Shown here: in pieces, positions 12,176-42,258 of the stretch
Layout: every line of letters starts with the position of its first letter
Position numbering within the stretch: the stretch's first letter is position 1
From: Narcine bancroftii
Lineage: Eukaryota
NCBI RefSeq assembly: GCF_036971445.1
Contig: NC_091481.1
Span: forward strand, 73,904,001 to 73,968,000
Length of the DNA stretch: 64,000 nucleotides
Reading direction: 5' to 3'
Position numbers and translations under genes: made by a program
The notes under the pieces: model-generated
Seen by the model: only the letters and a program-made list of their open reading frames with translations
Told to the model about the DNA's origin: nothing
Database searches by the model: none

Positions 12176-13790
12176 TCAGGTCAAGTTTAATGTCATCTGA
12201 TTGTACAAGTACAACCTGATGAAACAGCGTTCTACGGTCTGTGGTGCAAAACACACAAGGCACACAATGAGGCAGATCGCATGGATAGACAAAAAATACA
12301 TATGTGGGACAAGAATTCTATCTATAAAAATAAATAACTAAATATTGTTTTTTACCTATGAGAATCTCAGATGGTTAGTGTGCACAGTTCCTTTAGTCGT
12401 TCAGCATTCTCACTGCCCATGGGAAGAAGGTGTTCCTTAGCCTAGTGGTGCTGGCTTTGATACTCCTGCAGTTTAAACTTGACAGGAGCAGCTAAAATAT
12501 GCTGTGTGCAGGGTGGAAGGGATCATCAGTGATTTTGTGCCACCTCTTCAGACCATCCCAGTAGATCACGTTAGTGTGAGGGATGGGGGGAACACACAAG
12601 TGATCGTTTCTGCCACTTTTAAGGTCCTGTGGATTAACCTCCATTCCATTTCTATGCAGCAACCATACCACACTGTGATGAAGCTGGCCAGGACACACTC
12701 GATAGAGCTCCTGTAGAAGGTTGACATAATGGTGGCCGGAGGCCTTGCCTGCTTTAGAATTCTCAGAAAGTGCAGTCGCTGTTGCACCTCACGGCCAAGT
12801 AAAGACATGATGAGTGTCCAATTTAGGTCATTAGTTAAGTGAACTCCAAGGAACTTGGTGTTCGCCACTCTGTCTACTACAGAGTTGTTGATGTAGTGAA
12901 GGGTGGTTTTTCCTGGTTCTCCTGAAATACATGATCATCTCCTTTGTCTTGTCCACGTTGAGACTCAAACCATTTCATGAGAGTTTCCTCCTCTTCTCCG
13001 TAGTGTTACAAGAGGTAAACTTTAATTCAAAATTCCGCCCCCCCCCCCCCCACCTTTTATAATATTGCCCACTGGTTACTATGCAAATTTATATTACGGC
13101 ATAAAACTAATAAATTCCACAGCCTAAATATAACATATGTAATTAAAGTCTAAGTTATATTTCCAACCAGCCCACAGAAAAAACTTAGACACAATACAAA
13201 GACAAAACAAACAAGACTCACAAAACTTCAAACTCAACCGAAGCAAAGCTCAGAAACTAAATTTAGTTTTTTTGGTAAACTGAAGCCAAAAGATCTTAGA
13301 GGGCACAAAATTCGAAGTATTACTTGCAGAGAGAGGAACCACAGGCTTGGTCCGGATCCTTCTGGCTGCCTTTGAAATGATTCATCCTTTTTGAAATCCC
13401 AACATTCTAAACTGTCCTGCAGACCATGACCATGTCTGGGCCTTTTTCCACTCCACAACAACACCCAGTGGTGGTTTATTGTCCAAGTCCAGAATTTTTT
13501 TTCTTTTTCAATTCCTTCAGAGTCTGTCTCCCACTCTCTCAAGCAGTCCACCTTCACCTTGGCTCTGGCCCTCTAAGCCAAACTGTCACTTTTTAACATA
13601 AAACCACACAACACATAGGCCAATACACAACACAGAACTCTGTAACAGTGGCGTGATTTATAATTATTGCTGATGAGGCCAACGACTGCTGTGTTGTCTG
13701 CAAACTTGATGACACTGTTGGAGCTGGATCTGGGGATTCAAATATGGGTCAGTCGCGTGAACAGGAGTGGGCTGAGCACACAGCCCTGAG
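12176..13790 (-). mobile_element. Rex1/Babar LINE 3' part, interrupted by solo LTR-C; repeated in all four units
   Basis: FLGVHLTNDLNWT..QQRLHFLRILK..FYRSSIECVL..ITVWYG. PQGCVLSPLLF/KFAD-type RT motifs at 13660-13790. Confidence 0.85.
13004..13647. mobile_element. Solo LTR (family C); copies at 21296-22478, 30128-30844 and 38829-39407
   Basis: TGTTACA...TGTAACA termini with gtag/gtgg flanks. Interrupts the Rex1 RT. Confidence 0.8.
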
Positions 13791-14065
13791 GTGAAAAATA
13801 TCATAACTAATGTCCACATCTCAAAGTCATTGCAATTTTCAGTCTAGGGTTTCACAATCCTTCAATTTCACTAATTAAGCTCAGTGTCACGGAGCAATTT
13901 AATGTGGCTGATGTAATCCATTCATTATATTATTGAAATGGTCTATTTTTAACTCTATTGAAACCTCACAGTCCCTGTGGAAATCCCACATAGTATAAAT
14001 ACTCCAAAACAGTTCATCTAGAAAGTTTGATTCAGAGTAATTGCCCGCAGAATAAAGGGCAGAAA
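13790..14065 (+). promoter_or_regulatory. Putative GPCR proximal promoter with TATA box at 13994 (copies: TATA at 22825, 31191, 39754)
   Basis: TATAAATA lies 72 nt before the ATG. This is the only non-TE sequence upstream of the gene and is near-identical in all four copies. Confidence 0.6.
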
Positions 14066-16504
14066 ATGCTGGAAACATATTACGAGGTCGAGAAGATATT
14101 GTATGTTATCATTTCCGTCATTGGAGTTCCTGGTAAGTGAGTGGGACAATTTCAGTTCTGTAACTGTGCGCTTCCCGGACCTGATCGACTGATATTCATG
14201 TCACATAGCTTATTTCAACAGTTTGGAGTGGACCAAATTTCATAGGAGCAGATATAGGTTCTTCAGCTCAACGAGTCTGCCCCGCCATTCAATCATGAGC
14301 TCAGCCCCACTGCACAGCCTTCTCCCCATAACTTTTAACCTGTCTATTCAAGAACCTATCAATGTCTTCCTTACATACAAATCCAGTGACCTAACCTCCA
14401 CAACTGCCTACGGCAACAAATTCCACAGATTTACTACCCTCTGACTGAAGAAATTCCTCTGCATCTCTGTTCTAAGCGGACGCCCTTCAATCCTGAATCC
14501 TTCAACTCTCCTTCCATGGGAAACAACTTTCTGCATCTCCTCTGTCCACGTCTTGCAACATTCAAAACGTTTCATCCATTCTCCTAAATTCCAATGATAC
14601 AGGTCAAAACGGTCAAATGCTCCTCAGATGATCACTCTTCCATTCCTGGAATCATCCTTGTGAACCTCCTTTGAACCCTCTCCAATGTCAGCACATCCTT
14701 TCATAAGTAGGGAGCCCAAAACTTCGCACCATATTCCAAGCGGGGTCTCACCAGTGCCTTGTAAAGCCTCAACATCACATCCCGGCTCTTCTATTCTATT
14801 CCCCTCGGATCGAAAACAATAACCTGGGTTATTAATCCTGAAACATCACTGTATTTCTTTCCTCTTGCCAACAGACAAAACATCTCCTTTTTGTAGCAAC
14901 ACAAGAGAAACGTTGTGTCAAGAGGCACTGTGCATCGAGTTGTAACAGAGCTCGGGACAGGCAGCATTCAGAAAAGGTGTGCGGGGAGGGTTTGATATTG
15001 TGAAGTTGGATGTTTTTGAGTATCAGAGTGAAGACTTGATCCTGTGGTCACGGTGCACTCTGGATTCTGCCCCAGTTGGAAACCGCTGTCTGTCTGTGAA
15101 CAATTGTGATAGATCCCGAGAACCAGTGGCTGGAGATTTGCAGGCGGGCGGTCTGGTGAAATGTGAATTAATCCATTCTGCTGTCAGATTCTAAGATGCT
15201 CTTGCCTTGTCTCTGCAACCTCCCTTGCCCCATAAGATGCTGTTTAAAGAAATCTGATAAAACACGTCTGGTCAGGGTTTTACTCAGTGAAATGGGCTTT
15301 TGCTGTTCACCCCACAGAAGTGCTTGAACCCTTCTCGCTGAAGCCAACACGAGGATCCGTGACCCACATGTCACATTTGTCACCCCTCACGTTCTTCAAA
15401 ACTGGATTTTATGTGAAAATCCATCGGGTGTTCAAAATAGGAGAATGGGTTCAGTGATGAAGGGCTCAAGCTCAAAGCGTTGCTTAAGTATCATCTTTAC
15501 TGTATAAAGTAGACTCTTTGACACCTGAGTTCCCCCCACGTTGTGTTTTTCCTTGTGTTCAATAATGCCAAATGTGCTTGATCTCACTTTCTCCAGTGAA
15601 TGTGGTGGCAATTGTGATCCTATCCCGGGGAAAGTGCGGCCTTTCCACCTGCACCACTCGCTACCTGTTGGCCATGGCAGTGTCGGATCTACTGGTCATT
15701 ATAATTGTGGTAATTTTCTACCGATTATATTATCATTATTTTCCGGTAAATTTCCAGAATAGCACCAACGTGTGCAAAGCCATTTATGCCCTGGCTTATG
15801 CAGCTGCCAACTGTTCTGTCTGGTTCACTGTTTCTTTCACTCTCGACCGTTTTGTGGCCATTTGCTGTCAGAAACTGAAGACCAAATATTGCACCAGGAC
15901 CGTTGCGGCTTTTGTTGTAGTGACCACTGGCGTCCTGCTCTGTCTGAAAAACATTCCCTTCTACTTTGCCTATCAGCCAAGATGGATCATCAACAATGTA
16001 CCGTGGCTCTGTGTACTGACAGACAGTTATTACACTGACCCAGGGTGGGTGGCATTTGACTGGCTCGATAAAGTTTTAACTCCGTTGGTTCCTTTCGCTG
16101 TAATTCTGCTGCTCAACGCTTTGACGATCCGGCACATTTTAGTGGCCAATCGTGTCCGGAAGGGGCTAAAGAATCAGAGCAAGGGGGAGAACCGCAATGA
16201 CCCGGAGATGGAGAGCAGAAGGAGGTCTGTGGTTTTACTTTTCATGCTCTCCGCCAACTTCATCTTCCTGTGGCTGGTGTATGTGGTAGAATTCGCCTAC
16301 TATCAGATTGCACGGAGAGGAATAGATCGGAATCATTGGGAAATCATCTTTCACGAAGCTGGATATTTACTGAGTAATTTCAGCTGCTGCACGAACGCAT
16401 TTATTTATGCAGCGACTCAGTCCAAATTCAGGGGGCAGATCAAGATCGCGGTGAAATATCCAGTCAGCTCAATGCTTCAGTTCATGAATAAAGCGGCTCT
16501 TTGA
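14066..16504 (+). CDS. GPR139/GPR142-like class A GPCR, copy 1 (exons 14066-14132 and 15597-16504; 324 aa)
   Basis: Exon 1 MLETYYEVEKILYVIISVIGVP ends g|gtaagt. The acceptor is ttctccag|tg, giving a phase-1 join that completes TM1 (GVPVN). LAMAVSDLL, DRF, ECL cysteines, NAFIY and seven hydrophobic segments are present. Confidence 0.92.
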
Positions 16505-17134
16505 CTTGACCCAGCGGTGACCACATGACCCCATCCTGGTCTCCGCTTCCTGAAATTCACCCCAAAGTTCAGGTGCTTTCCTGGGTGGGACCATCAGCTC
16601 CGGACGTTTCCACGCTCACAATAACGCTCTCACCCTATTGCTTTCCAGATCGTGGCGAGGTTCAAGCCGTCTTTGCCAAAATGACAATCATCTCCCTTCT
16701 CCGACGGCTAAAGGAACCCTTAACCCCTGACCTTTCAAATGCCACCCTCTACCCGAGTCTCCCATGGTCATTGAGAAGCTGTGGGGAATGATAGCGACAT
16801 TCGACTACCGTCAGTCGGCGTCTGTGACGCTCCACTCCTGATGTTTCAATGTCGATATTGCAGAGTAAAAAGAAATCGAGTCGGCCAGCTGGGCCCGCAA
16901 CCCGGATCTGATTTTCAGTCACGGCCAACACACTCAAGCTTCAAATCCCACGTGGCTTAACAATTGTCTGTTTCTCTCAAACGTTGCTGCTTCTTCCAAT
17001 TTCGCCTCCATGGTAACCATTACCATACATTCTATGAGAGGCTATTTACAGGCACCTTGATTTAAAATGTTTGCTTTGTTCAAAATTCCCCTAATTGCTG
17101 AACGATATCTTCCCTGTCTGGCAGGTCCTTGTAT

Positions 17135-18185
17135 AACCATATAACAATTACAGCACGGAAACAGGCCTTTTTGTCATTTCTAGTCTACACCGAACCAAGT
17201 CCTCTCCTCTCGTCCCATCGACCAGCACCTTGCCCAGAACTCTCTATTCCCCTCCCATCCATATACCTATCCAATTTTCCTTAAATGACAAAATAGACCC
17301 TGCCGCCGCTACTACTCCCTGAAGCTCATTCCTCACAGCACCACTCTCTGAGAGAAGAATTTCCCTCTCATGATACTTCTAAACTTTTCCCCCCTTAACT
17401 CTTAACTCATGACGTCTTGTTTCAATCTCTCCCACTCTCAATGGAAAAAGCCTATCCACAACAATTCTATCTCATAATCTTAAATACCTCAATCAAATCC
17501 TCTCTCAACCTTCTGTGCTCCAAGGAATAAAGACCAAAGCTGTTCAATCTTTCTTTGCAATCTAGATTCTGAAACCAAGGTAACAATTTCATAAATCTTC
17601 TCTGCACTTTTTCTACCTTGTTGATATCCTTCCTATAATTCGGTGACCAGAATTGCACACAGAATTCCAAATATGGCTTCACCAATCCCTTGAACAGTTT
17701 CAACATGACTTCACAATTCCTGTATTCTATGCTTTGATTTATATAGGCCAGCATACTAAAAGCCGCCTTCACCGCCCTATCTACAAGAGATTCTACTTTT
17801 AAGGAACGATAAGCCATTATTCCTAGATCTTTCTGCTTGACTGCATTTCTCAATGCCCTCCCAGTTACTATGTATATCCTGTGTTGATTATTCCTTACAA
17901 AATCAATCACTTCATATTTATCAGCATTAAACTCCATCTGCCATCTTTCAGCCCACTGTTCTAAGCAGCCCAAATCCCTCTGCAATCTTTTATAACCTTC
18001 TTCATTATCTACAATTCCACCTATTTTAGTTTCATCCACATATTTACCAATCCAATTTACCACCCCATCATCCAGATCATTCATGTAAATGACAAACATG
18101 AAGGGACCCAATAGAGATCTCTGAGGCACACCGCTTGTTACCGACCTCCAGTCTGACAAACAGTTATCCACTTGACTAGACTCTC
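17135..18185 (-). mobile_element. CR1 LINE 3' fragment; copies at ~25955-27000, ~34345-34862 (internally deleted) and ~42907-43945
   Basis: ORF 17467-18171 VTSGVPQRSLLGP..WQMEFNADKY..FWSPNYRKDI. The tail matches the CR1 ending at 61745. Confidence 0.92.
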
Positions 18186-18189
18186 TGGT

Positions 18190-18560
18190 GTGTTTCCATA
18201 AGATCCCATCATTCTTTTAAACCCCACAGAGTACATATCCAAGCTTTTATCCAACGACATTTATTGAGATGAGAGGCAATTCGGCGCCTGCCAAAATTTC
18301 CATTTCAATGACCATTCCCATACTGGTATAACCGTCCTGGCTTCACCCATTAAGAGCGTGGGTCCAAATGTAATATTGAGGAACAGCACATCACGTTTCC
18401 TGGTGGACACCCAATGCTATGAATATCCTTGGTCACCTATACTTTGGTCTGATTACACGATTCTGATCTATTTGCCTATTTGTTTTCTCTCTGTCTAAAA
18501 TCCCATCACAGTTTTGTTTCCCTTTACCCAGCTCTCCTCATTTGCGACCATCTGTCTACC
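18190..18560 (+). mobile_element. Decayed Penelope-like GIY-YIG C-terminal fragment (present in each unit)
   Basis: catttcaatgaccattcccatact..gaggaacagcacatcacgtttc resembles HFN..SH..EEQHLIF, also seen at ~45880-45980. Confidence 0.55.
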
Positions 18561-19420
18561 ACGCTATGGTCGTTTATCCCTTCCCAGCTTCTCACCCCAA
18601 TGTGAATGCTGGTGCAACGAGCTACAATGTGTCTGCATATTGTTTTTTCCTGATCTCCTCTCCCCAGCCTCATTCTCTGGCGATCACCAGTGTTTGTCAT
18701 CCCTCCTTCATGTTAATGAATCCGTGATCGTTTTGATATGACGTGAGTTTCCCCGCAAAAAAAAGATATATTTCCAATCACCTCGTTTGTCTTTCGCTGC
18801 TTATTCCTGATAAACCAAATACCAATGATCTCTCCAAACATTTTGTATCATGTAGGTTTATATGTTGTTAACCATGTGCTCTTCAGCTGACTGACGGAAC
18901 CCATCTTTCTTGTCAGGATGATTTGTTATTTGCTGAGGTCTTAGCGAGTGATCTGCCACTGATCATCTGCTGTCTGTCTCTTGGATTGCTTTGTCAGCTC
19001 ACTTCAGATGGTCCCATCTTCAAACCACTGGATGCCCCCTTGAATATGCCGAGTGCCTGGCTTTGAGTGGTGATGTTCAGCCTCAGGCTGATTCTGGTTT
19101 TTGGCCACATTATGGTCATTCTTACCAGGGTATCCTGAACATCACCATTAATCTTCTTCACACGAAGAATTCTGACATTGTAGGGTCAAGGATCACATTC
19201 TGCTGGAGATGTCATGGAGTAAAAACTATAACTAATAAAAAAAAATACCTTCGAGGATAAAAAAAAAAGCGGGCTGTCTTAAACAGCAGTTCCTCACAAA
19301 AATGTTTGTTGAGGAATGTTGGTCTTCATGTCATGATGATGTTAGTCCAGATATGCTCTCCAGCATCTTAAACCTTATCCATGTAGGAAAGGTTCACTGG
19401 ATTGAGTCGTGGGACATTAG

Positions 19421-19851
19421 GACATCCGCCCTACCTGATGTGTTAATGGTGTTCTGTATCAGGCAGCCATGGACTGTTTGACCTGCTAAATTTATATGTG
19501 ATCAATTTGTTGCCAGAAACTCAAAACAAAATATTGCACTGGGAGAACTGTGGCTGTGGTTCTGACATCAACAGGCATTCTGCTCTTGAATAAAACAAGT
19601 CACTCAATTTAACACCAACCATAATTATCAGCAATACACCGTGGTTCGTTAAAATTTAACCAGGTTATTTTAGTGATCCGAGGTGGGTGGATTTGATTGG
19701 TTCGATACTGTATCACTCATCCCGCTGCTGCTGAATGCCCTGACACAGTGTAGTGGTCGGTCAAGGTGCTGCGGGTTGGGTTGTAGAGCGAAGGGAGAGC
19801 CAGAGATGCTGAGCTGGAGGGAGGTCTGTGGTTTTACTCTTCACCATCTCC
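19421..19851 (+). pseudogene. Degenerate GPR139-like GPCR pseudogene (TM3-TM6), unit 1
   Basis: Collinear remnants VLYQAAMDC, FICDQFVA, CQKLKTKYCTGRTVAVVLTSTGILL, IISNTPWF, YFSDPRW, FDWFDT, LLLNALT, PEM and RSVVLLFTIS, with stops and frameshifts. Confidence 0.88.
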
Positions 19852-21703
19852 TGTTCCTGAGGTGTGACAGAGTATATCGACATGTTTTTGGGAGATAATT
19901 TGGGAAAGGTTTGTTAGAGTTGGCCATTATAAACACTTTAAAACAGATCTGATTTGAAATACTGGACCTCTGCTAATACTAGACATATGGGCTCCACAGC
20001 ATTTGCAAGAGCTTTGGGAAGTGCCCAAGAGACTTCACTAATGGATTGTTGGTTATGAAAAGGCAACAGATGAAAGATCTTGTTGAAGCCACCTTCTATC
20101 TGGGAAGGAACTTGCTGTTCTAAGAGGGTCATGTGGTTTTGCAAGCAGAGGATTAAAGTTGAGGGAAAATGTGTTGAGAAAGATAGATAATTTTCCAGAG
20201 GATAGATCTGTTGAATTGCAATTGGAGTTGGAGAAATTGAGAGTGGAAGAGGAAAGAGAGAAATGGAATTTTGAGTTGCAGAGACAACAATATGAGGCTG
20301 AAAAACAGAGGAAATAGGTACTGAGCCCCGATCTGAAGCTTTGCACGTACCGTTAATCTACCTGTGCTTCGAGCAATAAAGCCCCATCATTTATATCCCC
20401 TTGCAATAACACATATCTCCCTCTTGGCAACATTGTCGTCATTCTTCTCTGCACACTCAAGCCTGACGAGATCTTTACTGCAGAAAGTCAAGTTTAATGT
20501 CATCTGATTGTACAAGTACTGCCTGATGAAACAGCGTTCTCCGGTCCGCAGTGCAAAACACACAAGGCACACAATGAGGCAGATCGCATGGATAGATAAA
20601 AAATACATATGTGGTACAAGAATTCTATCTATAAAAATAAATAACTAAATATTGTTTTTTCCCTATGAGAATCTCAGATGGTTAGTGTGCGCAGTTCCTT
20701 TAGTCGCTCAGCATTCTCACTGCCCATGGGAAGGTGTTCCTTAGCCTAGTGGTTCTGGCTTTGATACTCCTGTAGATTTTCCTTGATATGAGCAGCTAAA
20801 ATATGATGTGTGCAGGGTGGAAGGGATCCTCAGTGATTTTGTGCCCCCTCTTCATATCATCCCGGTAGATCATGTCAGTGTGGGGGATGGGGGAACACAC
20901 AAGTGATCGTTTCTGCCACTTTTAAGGTCCTGTGGATTAACCTCCATTCCATTTCTCTGCAGCAACCGTACCACACTGTGATGCAGCTGGCCAGGACACA
21001 CTCAATAGAGCTCCTGTAGAAGGTTGACATAATGGTGGCTGGTAGCCTTGCCTGCTTCAGAATTCTCAGAAAGTGCAGTCGCTGTTGCACCTCCCGATAT
21101 GGTGAGTGTCCAAGTTAGGTCATTAGTTAAGTGAAGTCCAAGGAACTTGGTGATTGCCACTCTGTCTACTACAGAGTTGTTGATGTAGTGAAGGGTGGTT
21201 GATCTTGGTTCTCCTGAAATACACACTCATCTCCTTTGTCTTGTCTGCATTGAGACTCGAACCATTTCACGAGAGTTTCCACCTCTTCTCTGTAGTGTTA
21301 CAAGATCAAACCAGCAACCACAAAGAAGGTATATCACACAGGAGTAAAGATGAACAATTACTTTATTATCAAAATTTCACTTTCAAATTTTAATTCAAAA
21401 TCCCCCCCCCCCCCTTTTATAGCATTGCCCACTGGTCACTATGCAAATTTCTATTACAGTGTAAAACTACTAAATTCCCCAGCCTAAATAAAGTCTAAGT
21501 TATATTTCCAACCAGCCCACAGATAAAACTTAGACACAATACAAAGACAAAACACACACAAGACTCACAAAACTTTGAACTCAACCGAAGCAAAGATCAT
21601 AAACAAAATTCAATTTGTTTGGTAAACTGAAGCCAAAAGATCTAACAGAGAGGGAGATAGAGAGAGAGAGAGAGAGCACAAATTCGAAGTGTTGCTTGCA
21701 GAG

Positions 21704-22138
21704 TGTTATAGATAGAGAATTTGGGTTAAAAAGGGTTTACGTTAAAATGTGATGATTAGTCATAAAAGGGGGCTAACCACTAGAGTTTAGCTGGAAAATG
21801 TTACAACAGACTTGCAACAGATTTAACTACAGAGAGACATGCAGGAGCCAAAGATTGATAAAGAGTGAAAAACAGAATTTGGTGTGAGCAGAGGTCATGA
21901 AGGATCGTGGTGTGCGTGACTATCAGTAATCAGGATGATTCTGCAAAAACTAACCAATTGAAGCAGTGTAGTGGAGATGCCGAAGGACAAGCAAATTGTA
22001 TAAAAAACAATGCACTGTATGTATCGGGGCTTGACTTGGCAAGAAGCCGGTTGAGTCCAACTCTGCAGACTTGTGAATAAAGCTTGTCGTGTCACCGATC
22101 TTAAAGAGACTCATTTGTGAGAATTTGTGTTTCTGACA
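21704..22138 (+). mobile_element. Solo LTR (family D), unique to unit 2
   Basis: TG...CA termini, perfect 5-bp TSD cagag, TATA-like tataaaa and AATAAA. The site is empty in the other units. Confidence 0.9.
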
Positions 22139-22896
22139 CAGAGAGAGGAACCACGGGCTTGGTCTGGATCCTTCTGGCTGCCTTTGGAATGATTCATCCT
22201 TTTTGAAATCCCAACATTCTAAACTGTCCTGCAGACCATGGCCATGTCTGGGCATTTTTCCAATCCACAACACCACCCAGTGGTGGTTTATTGTCCAAGT
22301 CCAGAAATTTTTTTCTTTTTCAATTCCTTCAGAGTCTGTCTCCCACTCTCTCAAGCACTCCACCTTCACCTTGGCTCTGGCCCTCTAAGCCAAACTGTCA
22401 CTTTTTAACATAAAACCACACAACACATAGGCCAATACACAACACCTAGGCCAATACACAACACAGAACTCTGTAACAGTGGCGCGATTTATAATTATTG
22501 CTGATGAGGCCAACGACTGCTGTGTTGTCTGCAAACTTGATGACACTGTTGGAGCTGGATCTGGGGATTCAAATATGGGTCAGTCGCGTGAACAGGAGTG
22601 GGCTGAGCACACAGCCCAGAGGTGAAAAATATCGTAACTAATGTCCCCATCTCAAAGTCATTGCAATTGTCAGTCTAGGGTTTCACAATCCTTCAATTTC
22701 ACTAATTAAGCTCAGTGTCACGGAGCAATTTAATGTGGCTGATGTAATCCATTCATTATATTATTGAAATGGTCTATTTTTAACTCTATTGAAACCTCAC
22801 AGTCCCTGTGGAAATCCCACATAGTATAAATACTCCAAAACAGTTCATCTAGAAAGTTTGATTCAGAGTAATTGCCCGCAGAATAAAGGGCAGAAA

Positions 22897-25306
22897 ATGC
22901 TGGAAACATATTACGAGGTCGAGAAGATATTGTATGTTATCATTTCCGTCATTGGAGTTCCTGGTAAGTGAGTGGGACAATTTCAGTTCTGTAACTGTGC
23001 GCTTCCCGGACCTGATCGACTGATATTCATGTCACATAGCTTATTTCAACAGTTTGGAGTGGACCAAATTTCATAGGAGCAGATATAGGTTCTTCAGCTC
23101 AACGAGTCTGCCCCGCCATTCAATCATGAGCTCAGCCCCACTGCACAGCCTTCTCCCCATAACTTTTAACCTGTCTATTCAAGAACCTATCAATGTCTTC
23201 CTTACATACAAATCCAGTGACTTAACCTCCACAACTGCCTACGGCAACAAATTCCACAGATTTACTGCCCTCTGACTGAAGAAATTCCTCCGCATCTCTG
23301 TTCTAAGCGGACGCCCTTCAATTCTGAAGTTGTGCCCTCTTGTATTCAACTCCCCCTCCATGGGAAACAACTTTCTGCATCTCCTCTGTCCGCACCTTGC
23401 ACCATTCAAAATGTTTCATCCCTTCTCCTAAATTCTAATGATACAGGCCAAAACGGTCAAATGCTCCTCAGATGATCACTCTTTCATTCCTGGAATCATC
23501 CTTGTGAACCTCCTTTGAACCCTCTTGAATGTCAGCACATCCTTTCATAAATAGGGAGCCAAAACTTCTCACCATATTCCAAGTGAGGACTCACCAGTGC
23601 CTTGTAAAGCCTCAGCATCACATCGCTGCTCTTCTATTCTATTCCCCTCGGAACGAAAGCCACAACCTGGGTTATTAATCGTGAAATATCGCTGTGTTTC
23701 ATTCCTCTTCTGAACAGACAAAACATCTCCTTTTTGTAACACACAGGGGACACGTTATGTCAAGAGACACGTTGCATCCAGTTGTAACAGAGCTCGGGAC
23801 AGGCAGCATTCAGAAAAGGTGTGCGGGGAGGGTTTGATATTGTGAAGTTGGATGTTTTTGAGTATCAGAGTGAAGACTTGATCTGGATTCTGCCACAGTT
23901 GGAAACCGCTGTCTGTCTGTGAACTATTGTGATAGATCCCGAGAACCAGTGGCTGCAGATTTGCAGGCAGGCGGTCTGGTGAAATGTCAGATTCTAAGAT
24001 GCCCTTGCCTTGTCTCTGCAACCTCCCTTGCCCCATAAGATGCTGTTTAAAAAAATCTGATAAAACACGTCTGGTCAGGGTTTTACTCAGTGAAATGGGC
24101 TTTTGCTGTTCACCCCACAGAAGTGCTTGAACCCTTCTCCCTGAAGCCGACACTAGGATCCATGACCCACATGTCACATTTGTCGCCCCTCACCTACTTC
24201 AAAACTGGATTTTACGTGAAAATCCATCGGGTTTTCAAAATAGGAGAATGGGTTCAGTGATGAAGGGCTCAAGCTCAAAGCGTTGCTTAAGTATCATCTT
24301 TATTGTTAAAGTAGACTCTTTGACACCTGTGTTCCCCCCGCGTTGTGCTTTTCCTTGTGTTCAATAATGCCAAATGTGCTTGATCTCACTTTCTCCAGTG
24401 AATGTGGTGGCGATTGTGATCCTGTCCCGGGGAAAGTGCGGCCTTTCCACCTGCACCACTCGCTACCTGTTGGCCATGGCAGTGTCGGATCTACTGGTCA
24501 TTATAATTGTGGTCATTTTCTACCGATTATATTATCATTATTTTCCGGTGAATTTCCAGAATAGCACCAATGTGTGCAGAGCCATTTATGCCCTGACGTA
24601 TGTAGCTGCCAACTGTTCTGTCTGGTTTACTGTTACTTTCACCCTCGATCGTTTTGTGGCCATTTGCTGTCAGAAACTGAAGACCAAATATTGCACCGGG
24701 ACCATTGCAACTTTTGTTGTAGCGACCACTGGCGTCCTGCTCTGTCTGAAAAACATTCCCTTCTACTTTGCCTATCAGCCAAGATGGATCATCGACAATG
24801 TACCGTGGCTCTGTGTACTGACAGACAGTTATTACACTGACCCAGGGTGGGTGGCATTTGACTGGCTCGATAAGGTTTTAACTCCATTGGTTCCTTTCGC
24901 TGTAATTCTGCTGCTCAACGTTTTGACGATCCGGCACATTTTAGTGGCCAATCGTGTCCGGAAGGGGCTAAAGAATCAGAGCAAGGGGGAGAACCGCAAC
25001 GACCCGGAGATGGAGAGCAGAAGGAGGTCTGTGGTTTTACTTTTCACGCTCTCCGCCAGCTTCATCTTCCTGTGGCTGGTGTATGTGGTAGAATTCGCCT
25101 ACTATCAGATCGCATGGAGCGGAATAGATCGGAATCATTGGGAAATCATCTTTCACGAAGCTGGATATTTACTGAGTAATTTCAGCTGCTGCACGAACAC
25201 ATTTATTTATGCTGCGACTCAGTCCAAATTCAGGGGGCAGATTCAGATTGCGGTGAAATATCCAGTCAGCTCAATGCTTCAGTTCATGAAGAAAGCGGCT
25301 CTTTGA
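22897..25306 (+). CDS. GPR139/GPR142-like GPCR, copy 2 (exons 22897-22963 and 24399-25306; 324 aa)
   Basis: Same structure and splice sites as copy 1; intact ORF. Confidence 0.92.
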
Positions 25307-28240: not shown

Positions 28241-28671
28241 GACATCCGCCCTACCTGATGTGTTAATGGTGTTCTGTATCAGGCAGCCATGGACTGTTTG
28301 ACCTGCTAAATTTATATGTGATCAATTTGTTGCCAGAAACTCAAAACAAAATATTGCACTGGGAGAACTGTGGCTGTGGTTCTGACATCAACAGGCATTC
28401 TGCTCTTGAATAAAACAAGTCACTCAATTTAACACCAACCATAATTATCAGCAATACACCGTGGTTCGTTAAAATTTAACCAGGTTATTTTAGTGATCCG
28501 AGGTGGGTGGATTTGATTGGTTCGATACTGTATCACTCATCCCACTGCTGCTGAATGCCCTGACACAGTGTAGTGGTCGGTCAAGGTGCTGTGGGTTGGG
28601 GTGTAGAGCGAAGGGAGAGCCAGAGATGCTGAGCTGGAGAGAGGTCTGAGGTTTTACTCTTCACCATCTCC
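28241..28671 (+). pseudogene. Degenerate GPCR pseudogene, unit 2
   Basis: Duplicate of 19421-19851. Confidence 0.88.
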
Positions 28672-31262: not shown

Positions 31263-33694
31263 ATGCTGGAAACATATTACGAGGTCGAGAAGATATTGTA
31301 TGTTATCATTTCCGTCATTGGAGTTCCTGGTAAGTGAGAGGGACAATTTCAGTTCTGTAACTGTGCGCTTCCCGGACCTGATCGACTGATATTCATGTCA
31401 CATAGCTTATTTCAACAGTTTGGAGTGGACCAAATTTCATAGGAGCAGATATAGGTTCTTCAGCTCAACGAGTCTGCCCCGCCATTCAATCATGAGCTCA
31501 GCCCCACTGCACAGCCTTCTCCCCATAACTTTTAACCTGTCTATTCAAGAACCTATCAATGTCTTCCTTACATACAAATCCAGTGACTTAACCTCCACAA
31601 CTGCCTACGGCAACAAATTCCACAGATTTACTGCCCTCTGACTGAAGAAATTCCTCCGCATCTCTGTTCTAAGCGGACGCCCTTCAATTCTGAAGTTGTG
31701 CCCTCTTGTATTCAACTCCCCCTCCATGGGAAACAACTTTCTGCATCTCCTCTGTCCGCACCTTGCACCATTCAAAATGTTTCATCCCTTCTCCTAAATT
31801 CTAATGATACAGGCCAAAACGGTCAAATGCTCCTCAGATGATCACTCTTTCATTCCTGGAATCATCCTTGTGAACCTCCTTTGAACCCTCTTGAATGTCA
31901 GCACATCCTTTCATAAATAGGGAGCCCAAAACTTCTCACCATATTCCAAGTGAGGACTCACCAGTGCCTTGTAAAGCCTCAGCATCACATCGCTGCTCTT
32001 CTATTCTATTCCCCTCGGAACGAAAGCCACAACCTGGGTTATTAATCGTGAAATATCGCTGTGTTTCATTCCTCTTCTGAACAGACAAAACATCTCCTTT
32101 TTGTAACACACAGGGGACACGTTATGTCAAGAGACACGTTGCATCCAGTTGTAACAGAGCTCGGGACAGGCAGCATTCAGAAAAGGTGTGCGGGGAGGGT
32201 TTGATATTGTGAAGTTGGATGTTTTTGAGTATCAGAGTGAAGACTTGATCTGGATTCTGCCACAGTTGGAAACCGCTGTCTGTCTGTGAACTATTGTGAT
32301 AGATCCCGAGAACGAGTGGCTGCAGATTTGCAGGCAGGCGGTCTGGTGAAATGTGAATTAATCCATTCTGCTGTCAGATTCTAAGATGCCCTTGCCTTGT
32401 CTCTGCAACCTCCCTTGCCCCATAAGATGCTGTTTAAAGAAATCTGATAAAACACGTCTGGTCAGGGTTTTACTCAGTGAAATGGGCTTTTGCTGTTCAC
32501 CCCACAGAAGTGCTTGAACCCTTCTCCCTGAAGCCTACACTAGGATCCGTGACCCACATGTCACATTTGTCGCCCCTCACCTACTTCAAAACTGGATTTT
32601 ACGTGAAAATCCATCGGGTTTTCAAAATAGGAGAATGGGTTCAGTGATGAAGGGCTCAAGCTCAAAGCGTTGCTTAAGTATCATCTTTACTGTATAAAGT
32701 AGACTCTTTGACACCTGTGTTCCCCCCGCGTTGTGCTTTTCCTTGTGTTCAATAATGCCAAATGTGCTTGATCTCACTTTCTCCAGTGAATGTGGTGGCG
32801 ATTGTGATCCTGTCCCGGGGAAAGTGCGGCCTTTCCACCTGCACCACTCGCTACCTGTTGGCCATGGCAGTGTCGGATCTACTGGTCATTATAATTGTGG
32901 TCATTTTCTACCGATTATATTATCATTATTTTCCGATGAATTTCCAGAATAGCACCAACGTGTGCAGAGCCATTTATGCCCTGACGTATGCAGCTGGCAA
33001 CTGTTCTGTCTGGTTCACTGTTACTTTCACTCTCGATCGTTTTGTGGCCATTTGCTGTCAGAAACTGAAGACCAAATATTGCACCGGGACCATTGCAACT
33101 TTTGTTGTAGCGACCACCGGCGTCCTGCTCTGTCTGAAAAACATTCCCTTCTACTTTGCCTATCAGCCAAGATGGATCATCGACAATGTACCGTGGCTCT
33201 GTGTACTGACAGACAGTTATTACACTGACCCAGGGTGGGTGGCATTTGACTGGCTGGATAAGGTTTTAACTCCATTGGTTCCTTTCGCTGTAATTCTGCT
33301 GCTCAACGTTTTGACGATCCGGCACATTTTAGTGGCCAATCGTGTCCGGAAGGGGCTAAAGAATCAGAGCAAGGGGGAGAACCGCAACGACCCGGAGATG
33401 GAGAGCAGAAGGAGGTCTGTGGTTTTACTTTTCACGCTCTCCGCCAGCTTCATCTTCCTGTGGCTGGTGTATGTGGTAGAATTCGCCTACTATCAGATCG
33501 CATGGAGCGGAATAGATCGGAATCATTGGGAAATCATCTTTCACGAAGCTGGATATTTACTGAGTAATTTCAGCTGCTGCACGAACACATTTATTTATGC
33601 TGCGACTCAGTCCAAATTCAGGGGGCAGATTCAGATTGCGGTGAAATATCCAGTCAGCTCAATGCTTCAGTTCATGAAGAAAGCGGCTCTTTGA
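31263..33694 (+). CDS. GPR139/GPR142-like GPCR, copy 3 (exons 31263-31329 and 32787-33694; 324 aa)
   Basis: Same structure; 3 aa differences from copy 2. Confidence 0.92.
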
Positions 33695-36088
33695 CTCGAC
33701 CCAGCGGTGACCACATGACCCCATCCTGGTCTCCGCTTCCTGAAATTCACCCCAAAGTTCAGGTGTTTTCCTGGGTGGGACCATCAGCTCCGGACGTTTC
33801 CACGCTCACAGCTAACGCTCTCACCCTATTGCTTTCCATATCGTGGTGAGGTTCAAGCCGTCTTTGCCAAAATGACAATCATCTCCCTTCTCCGACGGCT
33901 AAAGGAACCCTTAACCCCTGACCTTTCAGGTGCCACCCTCTACCCGAGTCTCCCATGGTCAGCGAGAAGCTGTGGGGAATGATAGCGACATCCGACTCCC
34001 GTCAGTCGGCGTCTGTGACGCTCCACTCCTGATGTTTCAATGTCGATATTGCAGAGTAAAAAGAAATCGAGTCGGCCAGCTGGGCCCTCAACCCGGATCT
34101 GATTTTCAGTCACGGCCAACACACTCAAGCTTCAAATCCCTCATGGCACATCTAAACTTCACTAACTTAACAATTGTCTGTTTTTCTCAAACAATGCTGC
34201 TTCGGCCAATTTCGCCTCCATTGTAACCAATACGATACATTCTATGAGAGGCTATTTACAGGCACCTTGATGTAAAACGTTTGCTATGTTCAAAATTCCT
34301 CTAATTGCTGAATGATATCTTCCCTGTCTGGCAGGACCTTGTATAACCATATAACAATTACAGCACGGAATCAGGCCATTTTGTCATTTCTAGTCCGCAC
34401 GGAACCAAGTCCTCTCCTCTAGTCCCATCGACCTGCCCAGAACTCTCTATTCCCCTCCCATCCATATACCTATCCAATTTTTCTTAAATGACAAAATAGA
34501 CCCTGCCGCCACTACTGCTCCCGGAAGCTCATTCCACACAGCACCACTCTCTGAGAGAAGAATTTCCCTCTCATGATACTTCTAAACTTTTCCCCCCTTA
34601 ACTCATGACCTCTTGTTTCAATCTCTCCCACTCTCAATGGAAAAAGCCTATCCACAACAACACTATCTCATAATCTTAAATACCTCAATCAAAACCTTCT
34701 GTGCTCCAAGGAATAAAGACCAAAGCTGTTCAATCTTTCTTTGTAATCTAGATTCTGAATCCAAGGTAACATTTTCGTAAATCTTCTCTGCACTCTCTCT
34801 GAGGCACACCGCTTGTTACCGACCTCCAGTCTGACAAACAGTTATCCACTTGACTAGACTCTCTGGTATGTTTCCATAAGATCCCATTATTCTTCTAAAA
34901 CCCACAGAGTACATATCCAAGCTTTTATCCAACGACATTTATTGAAATAAGAGGCAATTCGGCGCCTGCCATAATTTCCATTTCAATGACCATTCCCATA
35001 CTGGTATAACTGTCCTGGCTTCACCCATTAACAGCGTGGGTCCAAATGTAATATTGAGGAACAGCACATCACGTTTCCTGGTGGACACCCAATGCTATGA
35101 ATATCCTTGGTCACCTATACTTTGGTCTGATTGCACGATTCTGATCTATTTGCCTATTTATTTTCTCTCTGTCTAAAATCCCATCACAGTTTTATTTCCC
35201 TCTACCCAGCTCCCCTCATTCGCAACCATCTGTCTGCCACGCTATGTCGTTTATCCCTTCCCAGCTTCTCACCCCAATATGAATGCTGGTGCAACGAGCT
35301 ACAATGCGTCTGCATATTGTTTTTTCCTGATCTCCTCTCCCCAGCCTCATTCTCTGGCGATCACCAGTGTTTGTCATCCCTCCTTCATGTTAATGAATCC
35401 GTGATCGTTTTGATATGGCATGTGAGTTTCCCCGCAAAAATAAGATAAATTCTTTCCAGTCACCTCGTTTGTCTTTCGCTGCTTATTCCTGATAAACCAA
35501 ATACCGATGATCTCTCCAAACATTTTGTATCATGTACGTTTCCATGTTGTTGACAATGTGCTCTTCAGCTGACTGACGCAACCCCTCTTTCTCATCAGGA
35601 TGATTTGTTTTTTTGCTGAGGTTTGAGCGAGTGATCTGCCACTGATCAGCTGCTTGGATTGCTTTGTCAGCTCACTTCAGATGGTCCAAGCTTCAAACCA
35701 CTGGATGTCCCCTTGAATATGCCGAGGGCCTGGCTTTGAGTGGTGATGTTCAGCCTCAGGCTGATTCTGGTTTTTGGCCACATTATGGTCATTCTTACCA
35801 GGGTATCCTGAACATCACCATTAATCTTCTTTACACGAGGAATTCTGACATTGTAGGGTCAAGGGCCACATTCTGCTGGAGATGTCATGGAGTAAAAACT
35901 ATAACTAATAAAAAAAACCTTCGAGGATAAACAAAAGTGGGCTGTCTTAAACAGCAGTTCCTCATAGTAGTATTTGTCGAGGAATGTTGGTCTTCATGTC
36001 ATGATGATGTTAGTCCAGATATCCTCTCCAGCATCTTGAACCTTATCCATGTAGGAAAGGTTCGCCGGATGGAGTCGTGGGACATTAG

Positions 36089-36519
36089 GACATCCGCCCT
36101 ACCTGATGTGTTAATGGTGTTCTGTATCAGGCAGCCATGGACTGTTTGACCTGCTAAATTTATATGTGATCAATTTGTTGCCAGAAACTCAAAACAAAAT
36201 ATTGCACTGGGAGAACTGTGGCTGTGGTTCTGACATCAACAGGCATTCTGCTCTTGAATAAAACAAGTCACTCAATTTAACACCAACCATAATTATCTGC
36301 AATACACTGTGGTTCGTTAAAATTTAACCAGGTTATTTTAGTGATCCGAGGTGGGTGGGTTTGATTGGTTCGATACTGTATCACTCATCCCACTGCTGCT
36401 GAATGCCCTGACACAGTGTAGTGGTCGGTCGAGGTGCTGAGGGTTGGGGTGTAGAGCGAAGGGAGAGCCAGAGATGCTGAGCTGGAGGGAGGTCTGAGGT
36501 TTTACTCTTCACTATCTTC
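36089..36519 (+). pseudogene. Degenerate GPCR pseudogene, unit 3
   Basis: Duplicate of 19421-19851. Confidence 0.88.
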
Positions 36520-36816
36520 TGTGCCTGAGGTGTGACAGAGTATATCAACATGTTTATGGGAGATAATTTGGGAAAAGTTTGTTAGAGTAGGCCATTATAA
36601 ACACTTTAAAACAGATCTGATTTGAAATACTGGACCTCTGCTAATACTAGACATATGGGCTCCACAGCATTTGCAAGAGCTTTGGGAAGTGCCCAAGAGA
36701 CTTCACTAATGGATTGTTGGTTACGAAAAGGCAACAGATGAAAGATCTTGTTGAAGCCACCTTCTATCTGGGAAGGAACTTGCTGTTCTAAGAGGGTCAT
36801 GTGGTTTTGCAAGCAG

Positions 36817-36960
36817 NNNNNNNNNNNNNNNNNNNNNNNNNNNNNNNNNNNNNNNNNNNNNNNNNNNNNNNNNNNNNNNNNNNNNNNNNNNNNNNNNNNN
36901 NNNNNNNNNNNNNNNNNNNNNNNNNNNNNNNNNNNNNNNNNNNNNNNNNNNNNNNNNNNN
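36817..36960. other. Assembly gap (144 N) within the unit 3/4 junction LTR
   Basis: Run of N. Confidence 0.98.
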
Positions 36961-39825
36961 TTTACAGCCAGCAATAGCAGCTGGGACTGGAACAGGACAA
37001 GCTGGCAAGCTTTTGCAAAACCCCATTTTGGAAGACGGATTCTTATTTCAGCCTGGTCAAAGCCCTTGTGGGACATGCAAAAGGAGAAGGCTAGCTGTCT
37101 AATGTTTCACTTGAAATAAAAGAAACAAAAAGAAACTCTGTGTGACCTGAAAGAAAGAGGTTATCATCTGGAGAACCCTGGAGGGGGCAAGTTTTGTCAG
37201 CAAGACACTGAGGTGGATGATTAAAAAGGAATCAGTTGCGGATGTCCTGGAACAATGAATCTCTCTCTGAAAACTGACAAGAACCTTCGTAAGTGGTGAC
37301 CATATACCTTTCAAGCAACGAAGCCTGGTGAGCTTTATAAATGTTAAATTCTGTGCACAGTATCAGAATTGCTTGCAACCAGTGAACTTGGAGGTATGAG
37401 AAGACAGATTGGACTGTGAATCAAAGAACATTTCTGAACTTACACACACATTACATACACGTGCTCTTAGAATTAGAAGGGGGTTAAGTTAGGTTAGTTA
37501 AGTCAATAGTGATGATAAAGTGAGATTCTCTTTTCATGTTTAAAGATAATTAAACACAACCATCACCTGCAGAGCTGCAGAGCAAGAGAAAAGAGGAACT
37601 GAAGGTTATTTCTAAAGATGATTGAAGCCAAGATCTGGATGAAGTAAATACAAAGACAGAGGATTAAAGTTGAGGGAAAATGTGTTGAGAAAGATAGATA
37701 ATTTTCCTGAGTATAGATCTGTTGAATTGTAATTGGAGTTGGAGATATTGTGGGTGGAAGAGGAATTTTGAGTTGCAGAGACAACAATATGAGGCTGAAA
37801 AACAGATATATGAAGCAGAGGAAGCTGAAAAACAGAGGAAAAATGTACTGAGCCCCGATCTGAAGCTTTGCACGTACCGTTAATCTACCTGTGCTTCGAG
37901 CAATAAAGCCCCATCATTCATATCCCCTTTGCAATAACACGTCTCACTCATGGCAACATTATCGTCATTCTTCTCTGCACTCTCAAGCCTGACGAGATCT
38001 TTTCTGCACCACGTCAAGTCAAGTTTAATGTCATCAGATTGTACAAGTACAACCTGATGAAACAGCGTTCTACGGTCTGCGGTGCAAAACACACAAGGCA
38101 CACAATGAGGCAGATCGCATGGTAGACAAAAAAATGCATATGTGGGACAAGAATTCTATCTATAAAAATAAATAACTTATTTTTTTTTTACCTATGAAAA
38201 TCTCAGATGGTTAGTGTGCGCAGTTCCTTTAGTCGTTCAGCATTCTCACTGCCCATGGGAAGAAGGTGTTCCTTAGCCTAGTGGTGCTGGCTTTGATACT
38301 CCTGTAGTTTTTCCTTGATATGAGCAGCTAAAATATGATGTGTGCAGGGTGGAAGGGATCCTCAGTGATTTTGTGCCCCCTCTTCATACCATCCCGGTAG
38401 ATCATGTCAGTGTGGGGAAAGGGGGGAACACACAAGTGATCATTTCTGCCACTTTTAAGGTCCTGTGGATTAACCTCCATTCCATTTCTCTGCAGCAACC
38501 GTACCACACTGTGATGCAGCCGGCCAGGACACATTCGATAGAGCTCCTGTAGACTGTTGACATAATGGTGGCCGGTAGCCTTGCCTGCTTCAGAATTCTC
38601 AGAAAGTGCAGTCGCTGTTGCACCTCCCGACATGGTGAGAGTCCAAGTTAGGTCATTAGTTAAGTGAACTCCAAGGAACTTGGTGTTCGCCACTCTGTCT
38701 ACTACAGAGTTGTTGATGAGGTGAAGGGTGGTTGATCTTGGTTCTCCTGAAATACACATTCATCTCCTTTGTCTTGTCTGCGTTGAGACTCGAACCATTT
38801 CATGAGAGTTTCCACCTCTTCTCTGTAGTGTTACAAGATCAAACCAGCAACCACAAAGAAGGTATATCACACAGGAGTAATGATGAACAATTACTTTATT
38901 AACAAAAATTCACTTTCAAACTTTAATTCAAAATCCCCCCCCCCCACCCTTTCATAGCATTGCCCACTGGTCACTATGCAAATTTCTATTACAGTGTAAA
39001 ACTACTAAATTCCCCAGCCTAAATATAACATTTGGTAAACTGAAGCCAAAAGATCTTAGAGGGCACAAAATTCGAAGTGTTGCTTGCAGAGAGAGGAACC
39101 ACAGGCTTGGTCCGGATCCTTCTGGCTGCCTTTGGAATGATTCATCCTTTTTGAAATCCCAACATTCTAAACTGTCCTGCAGACCATGACCATGTCTGGG
39201 CCTTTTTCCACTCCACAACACCACCCAGTGGTGGTTTATTGTCCAAGTCCAGAAATTTTTTTCTTTTTCAATTCCTTCAGAGTCTGTCTCCCACTCTCTC
39301 AAGCACTCCACCTTCACCTTGGCTCTGGCCCTCTAAGCCAAACTGTCACTTTTTAACATAAAACCACATAACACATAGGCCAATACACAACACAGAACTC
39401 TGTAACAGTGGCGCGATTTATAATTATTGCTGATGAGGCCAACGACTGCTGTGTTGTCTGCAAACTTGATGACACTGTTGGAGCTGGATCTGGGGATTCA
39501 AATATGGGTCAGTCGCATGAAACGGAGCGGGCTGAGCACACAGCCCTCAGGTGAAAAATATCGTAACTAATGTCCACATCTCAAAGTCATTGCAATTGTC
39601 AGTCTAGGGTTTCACAATCCTTCAATTTCACTAATTAAGCTCAGCGTCACGGAGCAATTTAATGTGGCTGATGTAATCCATTCATTATATTATTGAAATG
39701 GTCTATTTTTAACTCTATTGAAACCTCACAGTCCCTGTGGAAATCCCACATAGTATAAATACTCCTAAACAGTTCATCTAGAAAGTTTGATTCAGAGTAA
39801 TTGCCCGCAGAATAAAGGGCAGAAA

Positions 39826-42258
39826 ATGCTGGAAACATATTACGAGGTCGAGAAGATATTGTATGTTATCATTTCCGTCATTGGAGTTCCTGGTAAGTGA
39901 GTGGGACAATTTCAGTTCTGTAACTGTGCGCTTCCCGGACCTGATCGACTGATATTCATGTCACATAGCTTATTTCAACAGTTTGGAGTGGACCAAATTT
40001 CATAGGAGCAGATATAGGTTCTTCAGCTCAACGAGTCTGCCCCGCCATTCAATCATGAGCTCAGCCCCACTGCACAGCCTTCTCCCCATAACTTTTAACC
40101 TGTCTATTCAAGAACCTATCAATGTCTTCCTTACATACAAATCCAGTGACTTAACCTCCACAACTGCCTACGGCAACAAATTCCACAGATTTACTGCCCT
40201 CTGACTGAAGAAATTCCTCCGCATCTCTGTTCTAAGCGGACGCCCTTCAATCCTGAAGTTGTGCCCTCTTGTATTCAACTCCCCCTCCATGGGAAACAAC
40301 TTTCTGCATCTCCTCTGTCCGCACCTTGCACCATTCAAAATGTTTCATCCCTTCTCCTAAATTCCAATGATACAGGCCAAAACGGTCAAATGCTCCTCAG
40401 ATGATCACTCTTTCATTCCTGGAATCATCCTTGTGAACCTCCTTTGAACCCTCTTGAATGTCAGCACATCCTTTCATAAATAGGGAGCCCAAAACTTCTC
40501 ACCATACATCCAAGTGAGGACTCACCAGTGCCTTGTAAAGCCTCAGCATCACATCCCTGCTCTTCTATTCTATTCCCCTCGGAACGAAAGCCACAACCTG
40601 GGTTATTAATCGTGAAATATTGCTGTATTTCATTCCTCTTCTGAACAGACAAAACATCTCCTTTTTGTAACAACACAGTGGACACGTTATGTCAAGAGGC
40701 ACCTTGCGTCAAGTTGTAACAGAGCTTGGGACAGGCAGCATTCAGAAAAGGTGTGCGGGGAGGGTTTGATATTGTGAAGTTGGATGTTTTTGAGTATCAG
40801 AGTGAAGACTTGATCTGGATTCTGCCACAGTTGGAAACCGCTGTCTGTCTGTGAACTATTGTGATAGATCCCGAGAACGAGTGGCTGCAGATTTGCAGGC
40901 AGGCGGTCTGGTGAAATGTGAATTAATCCATTCTGCTGTCAGATTCTAAGATGCCCTTGCCTTGTCTCTGCAACCTCCCTTGCCCCATAAGATGCTGTTT
41001 CACGAAATCTGATAAAACACGTCTGGTCAGGGTTTTACTCTGTGAAATGGGCTTTCGCTGTTCAACCCACACAAGTACTTGAACCCTTCTCCTTGAAGCC
41101 GACACGTGGATCCATGACCCACATGTCACATTTGTCGCCCCTCACCTACTTCAAAACTGGATTTTACGTGAAAATCCATCGGGTGTTCAAAATAGGAGAA
41201 TGGGTTCAGTGATGAAGGGCTCAAGCTCAAAGCGTTGCTTAAGTATCATCTTTACTGTATAAAGTAGACTCTATGACACCTGAGTTCCCCCCACGTTGTG
41301 CTTTTCCTTGTGTTCAATAATGCCAATGTGCTTGATCTCACTTTCTCCAGTGAATGTGGTGGCAATTGTGATCCTGTCCCGGGGAAAGTGCGGCCTTTCC
41401 ACCTGCACCACTCGCTACCTGTTGGCCATGGCAGTGTCGGATCTACTGGTCATTATAATTGTGGTCATTTTCTACCGATTATATTATCATTATTTTCCGG
41501 TGAATTTCCAGAATAGCACCAACGTGTGCAAAGCCATTTATGCCCTGGCTTATGCAGCTGCCAACTGTTCTGTCTGGTTCACTGTTACTTTCACTCTCGA
41601 TCGTTTTGTGGCCATTTGCTGTCAGAAACTGAAGACCAAATATTGCACCGGGACTGTTGCGGCTTTTGTTGTAGTGACCACCGGCGTCCTGCTCAGCCTG
41701 AAAAACATTCCCTTCTACTTTGCCTATCAGCCAAGATGGATCTTTGACAATGTACCGTGGCTCTGTGTACTGACAGACAGTTATTACACTGACCCAGGGT
41801 GGGTGGCATTTGACTGGCTCGATAAAGTTTTAACTCCGTTGGTTCCTTTCGCTGTAATTCTGCTGCTCAATGCTTTGACGATCCGGCACATTTTAGTGGC
41901 CAGTCGTGTCCGGAAGGGGCTAAAGAATCAGAGCAAGGGGGAGAACCGCAACGACCCGGAGATGGAGAGCAGAAGGAGGTCTGTGGTGTTACTTTTCACG
42001 CTCTCCGCCAGCTTCATCTTCCTGTGGCTGGTGTATGTGGTAGAATTCGCCTACTATCAGATCTCATGGAGCGGAATAGATCGGAATCATTGGGAAATAA
42101 TCTTTCACGAAGCTGGATATTTACTGAGTAATTTCAGCTGCTGCACGAACACATTTATTTATGCTGCGACTCAATCCAAATTCAGGGGGCAGATCAAGAT
42201 CGCGGTGAAATATCCAGTCATCTCAATGCTTCAGTTCATGAATAAAGCGGCTCTTTGA
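39826..42258 (+). CDS. GPR139/GPR142-like GPCR, copy 4 (exons 39826-39892 and 41351-42258; 324 aa)
   Basis: Same structure and splice sites; intact ORF. Confidence 0.92.

Follow-up and report, generated by a model that had tools for sequence, protein, structure and literature searches.

GPR139 is an orphan among class A G-protein-coupled receptors (GPCRs) and answers to L-Trp and L-Phe, mainly via Gq/11 (PMC8807744). Together with GPR142, it is sister to protostome receptors of the FMRFamide/myosuppressin type (PMC8557429; clade relations also in PMC12208981). GPR139-like sets of bony fish and coelacanth have been named GPR210A/B (Rinne 2019, PMC6504862), in a paper that has no occurrence of sharks, and an 'Orphan 139-like' group has been reported with its ligand unknown (PMC5207463). 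In this study, we analysed a stretch of 64,000 nucleotides from the electric ray Narcine bancroftii (contig NC_091481.1, positions 73,904,001 to 73,968,000; hereafter called the window), which harbours four tandem genes for GPR139-like receptors, and we characterized the large family of cartilaginous fish receptors to which these genes belong.

Chemoreceptors have been surveyed in the catshark, where the counts are 8 OR-type, 3 ORA, 3 TAAR, 2 TARL and approximately 35 V2R-type genes (PMC11979771); an earlier repertoire paper on the same animal covers OR, TAAR, ORA, V2R and taste receptors (PMC6368271), and a paucity of GPCRs in cartilaginous fishes was noted with the whale shark (PMC8455134). 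In nematodes, the srw receptors, which are related to FMRFamide/myosuppressin receptors, have undergone birth-and-death expansion with fast turnover and are proposed to sense environmental peptides (PMC2576165). A literature search, outside which most subscription journals fell, returned no description of a GPR139-type expansion in cartilaginous fishes. The main text of the catshark sensory genome paper has zero occurrences of GPR139 or GPR142 (PMC11979771), and PMC12294341 names GPR139 in a reference only.

A very large receptor family in cartilaginous fishes

We searched the ray genome with exon 2 of the window receptors, obtained 2115 candidates and scored the 130 best, every one of which passed. 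Their identities went down to 46%, and they were spread over 14 contigs; 112 were without internal stop and 18 had one, proportions that are biased toward the best matches. Exact DNA motif patterns were found at 359 (reversed control 0), 402 (control 1) and 407 places (control 36) in the same genome. Capture-recapture, in which the first 100 listed places of the motif in transmembrane helix (TM) 3 and 70 TM7 places in the same range formed 45 pairs, gives approximately 570 loci, a rough estimate because misses are clustered and non-independent and because pseudogenes and broken loci are counted. By comparison, when 67 candidates of the ray genome were scored against an odorant-receptor profile, a single one reached E ≤ 1e-30. 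The splice acceptor AG lies at the same codon in all 30 ray family loci read. These searches bear out the cluster organisation proposed in an initial annotation, which was made from the letters of the window, as intact and broken copies occur on many contigs. One array elsewhere holds seven near-identical copies approximately 12 kb apart (C11:188.84-188.92 Mb).

At the protein level, 1969 clusters match the window receptors and, among the 120 listed, all 116 that are named come from sharks or rays. Eighteen of 19 family clusters looked up are chondrichthyan, including one from the chimaera Callorhinchus milii, whose protein nests inside the family in the larger of our two trees (86 rows, see below). 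The expansion therefore probably predates the split between chimaeras and elasmobranchs, and many divergent subfamilies have been retained from chimaera to rays. Deep subfamilies are only 40-50% alike. In an unfiltered protein search, the identity of full-length matches falls from at least 40% straight to approximately 30%. We conclude that the family exists, that it is very large and that, within the reach of our literature search, it is undescribed; that it is a large family distinct from GPR139 we regard as virtually certain. In the cluster of P0157 (Chiloscyllium punctatum), a receptor model is accompanied by a 601-aa form and by a 'RING-type domain-containing protein', possibly an annotation fused with a neighbouring RING gene.

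Relationship to GPR139 and GPR139-like receptors

The best sequence match of a window gene is GPR139 (E 7e-11) and the best fold match is 7vug. In the wide sense, the family belongs to the GPR139/GPR142-related clade, as its nearest characterised receptor is GPR139 and an intron in TM1 is shared. The true GPR139 of the ray lies elsewhere. It appears as a single further pattern match (C24:21.5 Mb) and has ordinary orthologues; its match to the human protein extends over 138 aa, with an E of 6e-78. Orthology of the family with GPR139 was rejected on this far better match (6e-78 versus 7e-11) and on the approximately unbiased (AU) test described below.

We built trees of 48 and 86 rows, of which 17 and 55, respectively, belong to the family. 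The rows were hand-picked for spread and near-full length, with one named GPR142 only and, as outgroups, nine proteins taken for invertebrate. In the 48-row tree, the family first joins an amphibian/sturgeon lineage (support 100/99) and then a coelacanth/teleost lineage (95/91), with GPR139 and GPR142 outside, and a clade of the family with GPR139/142 is rejected (p-AU 0.0017). The family alone is supported at only 90/62, and the amphibian/sturgeon gene may be its sister or stand at its base. The 86-row tree agrees with the smaller one. The view that the window belongs to a lineage-expanded family, related but not orthologous to GPR139, is upheld by the separate GPR139 locus, the AU test and the trees; that locus and the tree exclude the counter-scenario in which the genes would be true GPR139 orthologues that were duplicated locally. 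As for the proposal of a 'sister family', the relationship to GPR139 stands, but it is not one of direct sisters, as the amphibian/sturgeon and coelacanth/teleost genes are closer.

The two bony-vertebrate lineages just named, coelacanth with teleost and amphibians with sturgeon, fall in the group at approximately 30% identity, and both are labelled GPR139. The amphibian/sturgeon gene (P0233, P0285-P0304) carries this label in RefSeq, yet it is closest to the shark family. Its 25 listed matches include 20 amphibian clusters and one of sturgeon, with one cluster per listed species, and neither amniotes nor teleosts are among these 25. It is apparently single-copy, and in Xenopus or axolotl it could serve as a model for the ancestral function. 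Given such a close bony-vertebrate gene, we rejected a strict restriction of the family to chondrichthyans.

The family and GPR139/GPR142 share a phase-1 intron at P|xN, as had been predicted; for the ray's own GPR139 this match rests on the acceptor position, the donor not having been located. Both also keep W6x48, D-R at 3x49-50 and Y7x53, and both lack P7x50. They differ in that the family forms its own clade with hundreds of copies versus one, in that most of its members lose P6x50, and in that it has cysteines in TM3 and extracellular loop (ECL) 2 that are absent from the ray GPR139 row. P6x50 is kept in only 4 of 104 near and 7 of 45 diverse members, and its loss is derived and near-general in the family. 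Other features that had been singled out as special are not. GPR139 itself reads N-F-F-L-Y, without P7.50, in place of NPxxY, the short N-terminus is common to the apparently single-copy bony-vertebrate kin, and the ECL1 sequon occurs in only 15 of 104 relatives. The short N-terminus and the missing NPxxY proline are ancestral.

With GPR210A/B and the 'Orphan 139-like' group, the family shares the short N-terminus, and it nests among such non-mammalian GPR139-like genes; unlike it, these orphans show one cluster per bony-vertebrate species and keep P6x50. P0232 and the P0233/P0304 group are likely GPR210A/B candidates.

Three ray loci touch on this kinship. Along its first 148 aligned residues, the ray GPR139 (C24:21.506 Mb, minus strand) shares 96% identity with that of the stingray, yet there are four frame changes in exon 2. 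As it shows many single-base indels and few substitutions, it resembles an assembly error, the alternative being a recent loss; errors of this kind could inflate pseudogene counts in the same assembly. At C15:228.48 Mb, a GPR139-like gene outside the big family branches below the coelacanth/teleost group; its exon 2 is open, and its acceptor occupies the same position. At C11:229.97 Mb lies a likely orthologue of coelacanth P0232, in pieces 54-65% identical, with frame changes and with residues 74-161 not found.

Variable pockets on a conserved inner face

We placed the pocket residues of GPR139 (PMC8807744, PMC5430874) by alignment to GPR139 numbering rather than by docking. In 13 GPR139 rows these residues are almost invariant, whereas they vary greatly among 104 family rows, across which intracellular loops (ICL) 1 and 2 and the ends of ICL3 hardly change. 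The mean column entropy among these 104 relatives is 2.00 bits at 19 pocket positions, 1.44 in the outer half and 0.41 in the inner half of the receptor.

F3x33, H5x43, W6x48, R6x51 and N7x38 of GPR139 correspond to Y, D, W, Y and Y in the window copies. Three of these five key residues are the most that any of the 149 aligned family rows retains, and 74 of the 104 near relatives and 23 of the 45 diverse ones retain only one. It is therefore unlikely that most members sense Trp/Phe in the manner of GPR139, and we rejected Trp or Phe as ligands by descent, the GPR139 pocket residues having been lost. In the near subfamily the pocket is acidic, with a mean net charge of -2.8 over 16 positions (n=104) and with D5x40 in 93 and D5x43 in 86 of the 104 rows. 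This points to amines or basic peptides, rather than Trp/Phe, as possible ligands of the window's subfamily.

Candidate transcripts

Three runs of the same species, guessed to be RNA and available as contigs without tissue labels, were compared with receptor copy 4 at 80% likeness. Contigs with many differences along exon 2 were found in all three, one colinear paralogue contig being listed per run. X1 contigs of 202, 222 and 231 nt on exon 2 and the 3' flank show 7, 11 and 0 differences from copy 4, and these mismatch counts are those that separate copy 4 from copy 3. The data fit the view that copy 3 and other members are transcribed, DNA in the runs being also possible. No joint of exon 1 with exon 2 is among the 15 of 145 joints listed, and no contig of any run falls in the bins 39614-39727 (upstream) and 40640-41095 (unique intron), a gap that proves nothing. 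Contig depths cannot rank the genes. Four proteins from short contigs bear no sign of spliced mRNA, as exon 1 is in none of them and P0071 starts with intron-like residues.

Comparison with chemoreceptor families and possible functions

Like the OR, TAAR, V1R/ORA and V2R repertoires, the family is a large, clustered set of compact GPCR genes with a short N-terminus, subject to gene birth and death, and its pocket is more variable than its G-protein face. It differs from them in having a coding intron. Membership of any of these families was rejected, since only PF00001 was matched in Pfam and no amine receptor was among 25 PDB sequence matches. The family is organised like a chemoreceptor repertoire while lying outside every known one. 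The nematode srw receptors arose out of the same FMRFamide/myosuppressin/MIP receptor clade, but by an independent expansion in a different phylum. PF10324 is found in 17-74% of the members of look-alike clusters, and none of the four window proteins matches it at E 0.001.

The best explanation, to which we assign a probability of roughly 0.45, is a repertoire for external chemicals used in chemosensory cells. One GPR139-related ancestral gene, seemingly kept single-copy in amphibians and sturgeon, would have expanded in cartilaginous fishes to 400-600 class A GPCR loci, with the four genes of the window as young members. Its turnover proceeds by tandem duplication and loss, both visible among the loci. 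The alignment, with its nearly fixed G-protein-facing surface and differing pockets, suggests that many ligands feed into one signalling path; each receptor would take a different set of ligands and all would couple to one G-protein type (mainly Gq/11 in GPR139). Candidate sites are chemosensory cells of the nose, mouth, gill, skin or gut. A more specific form of this proposal, which we put forward only tentatively, is a further vertebrate chemoreceptor family, and the largest that cartilaginous fishes have, with several hundred receptors sparsely expressed in olfactory or solitary chemosensory cells. If so, sharks and rays would smell or taste with a repertoire from the nematode-srw receptor clade that surveys of OR, TAAR, V1R and V2R genes have overlooked. 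How these animals discriminate chemicals despite few known receptors becomes a question testable with existing RNA data.

Several observations weigh against a chemosensory role. Among 12 non-independent close pairs, pN/pS gives no sign of diversifying selection on the pocket, being below 1 everywhere (0.41 in the pocket, 0.51 in the outer and 0.37 in the inner half). The acidic character of the pocket is much weaker in the 45 diverse members (mean -0.8). Family contigs occur in all three runs, which, if no sensory organ is among them, would count against an exclusively olfactory family. No GPCR is among the 50 genes most specific to a catshark brain and olfactory library (PMC11979771), a weak point because V2Rs are also missing from the same list. 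Lastly, the combination of a fixed inner face with a variable pocket would suit immune receptors equally well.

An innate-immune or neuro-immune repertoire, in which granulocytes, other leukocytes or free nerve endings would sense microbial, parasite or damage-derived peptides, is the strongest of the alternatives, though we consider it unlikely. The job would resemble that of the FPR and MRGPR receptors, to whose acidic pockets those of the near subfamily can be compared, but the hundreds of loci found here exceed the sizes of either family. The colinear paralogue contigs in all three runs are what a blood-borne cell type would be expected to give. Cartilaginous fishes are reported to lack MAS1 and its relatives (PMC8455134), which would leave the role vacant; the family itself is not related to FPR, chemokine or MAS receptors, its best sequence and fold matches being to GPR139. 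With such a function, the sister group of bony vertebrates would possess an innate repertoire of receptors.

Less probable still is a mixed family with no single repertoire function, whose subfamilies would have been recruited to brain, gonad, gut and electro- or mechanosensory organs for endogenous peptides or metabolites. The wider clade binds neuropeptides with aromatic ends (PMC8557429), the deep subfamilies differ in pocket chemistry as well as in sequence, and OR and some V2R genes of the catshark are expressed in many non-olfactory organs (PMC11979771). Receptors for endogenous peptides, however, are usually stable one-to-one orthologues (PMC2576165), whereas the copies described here turn over within one species.

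Mostly neutral amplification of a compact gene by unequal crossing over in repeat-rich, unstable regions, with most copies redundant or silent, would account for the near-identical arrays elsewhere, for the duplication of a decayed fragment along with the gene in the window and for the lack of signs of positive selection, but it is improbable given the proportion of best-scored loci without internal stop (a figure biased to the best matches), the purifying selection on the window copies (see below) and the retention of divergent subfamilies from chimaera to rays. Whatever the function, a family of 400-600 loci that share a single automatic label would upset the GPCR count of cartilaginous fishes.

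The receptor genes of the window

The four intact genes (Table 1) each comprise a 67-nt exon 1 and a 908-nt exon 2, separated by a GT..AG phase-1 intron of 1435-1464 nt. Their spliced models are those of RefSeq proteins of N. bancroftii named 'probable G-protein coupled receptor 139'; the genes were therefore already annotated, though by automatic label alone. All four proteins match PF00001 (E 4e-21 to 4e-22, with exon 2 only), and their 7tm_1 scores of 76-79 bits, against a curated cut-off of 30.5, place them in class A (rhodopsin-like). The structure of the receptor is predicted to have seven long helices (pLDDT, the predicted local distance difference test score, 89.6), with TM1 starting at about residue 2-10. 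The spliced models and profile scores confirm the four intact class A receptors in tandem that the initial annotation had described, and the motifs it listed are all present, namely an NST sequon at residues 77-79 (ECL1), DRF, FIFLWLVY without P6.50, N-[A/T]-FIY and an N-terminus free of sequons. The cysteines of TM3 and ECL2 are C82 and C161. The start given for the cluster in the initial annotation, 13790, was misplaced, as the first coding base is 14066.

The proteins differ from one another at 3-18 residues, and the ratio of nonsynonymous to synonymous substitution rates (dN/dS) among the copies, 0.18-0.34, indicates purifying selection. Self-blastn marks the units as recent segmental duplicates, with 93-97% identity across 4-8 kb; 13327-21703 and 22139-30529, for instance, are 95.6% identical over 8451 nt, and 30496-34800 and 39058-43381 are 97.2% identical. 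The 'older pseudogenes' reported at first turned out to be a single decayed fragment in three copies carried inside the repeated unit. As the translations of this fragment are near-identical and travel with the unit, they testify to one gene death, not several. The 20-kb flanks on each side of the window hold no additional family gene, so that the local cluster amounts to four genes, and it is the product of ordinary recent tandem duplication.

Table 1. Positions of the receptor genes and associated features in the window.
Feature	Position	Strand	Remarks
Receptor copy 1	exon 1 14066-14132, intron 14133-15596, exon 2 15597-16504	+	324 aa; identical to RefSeq XP_069765406.1
Receptor copy 2	exon 1 22897-22963, intron 22964-24398, exon 2 24399-25306	+	324 aa; identical to XP_069763861.1 (P0001)
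Receptor copy 3	exon 1 31263-31329, intron 31330-32786, exon 2 32787-33694	+	324 aa; identical to XP_069763862.1
Receptor copy 4	exon 1 39826-39892, intron 39893-41350, exon 2 41351-42258	+	324 aa; identical to XP_069763863.1
TATA-like box TATAAAT	13993-13999	+	~70 nt 5' of the copy 1 ATG; same in all four copies; putative function
Decayed family fragment, copy a	19421-19850	+	tblastn; TM3 to TM5/ICL3, with stops and frameshifts
Decayed family fragment, copy b	28241-28650	+	tblastn
Decayed family fragment, copy c	36089-36500	+	tblastn
Tandem segmental duplication	11126-44220	+	self-blastn; four ~8.4-8.8 kb units, each with a receptor gene and remnants of long interspersed nuclear elements (LINEs); decayed fragment in the first three units

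The divergence between units is mosaic. Between copies 2 and 4, the intron diverges by 2.0% and exon 2 by 3.5%; the corresponding values for copies 1 and 4 are 4.9% and 3.1%, and copies 3 and 4 diverge by 0.5% upstream. This patchiness along the units suggests gene conversion or unequal crossing over. Approximately 500 bp of LINE remnant is missing from unit 3.

Other features of the window

A long AT-rich element at approximately 50200-55500 (plus strand), whose frames are broken by frameshifts, includes a 435-aa frame at 51718-53025. Judging by its motifs, we take it to be LINE-like, with ORF1-like, endonuclease-like (51718-53025) and reverse-transcriptase-like frames. Open frames in the 10 kb on each side of the window presumably correspond to pieces of retrotransposon pol genes. 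At approximately 1500-2560 of the window, a pyrimidine-rich tandem array gives rise to long spurious open frames.

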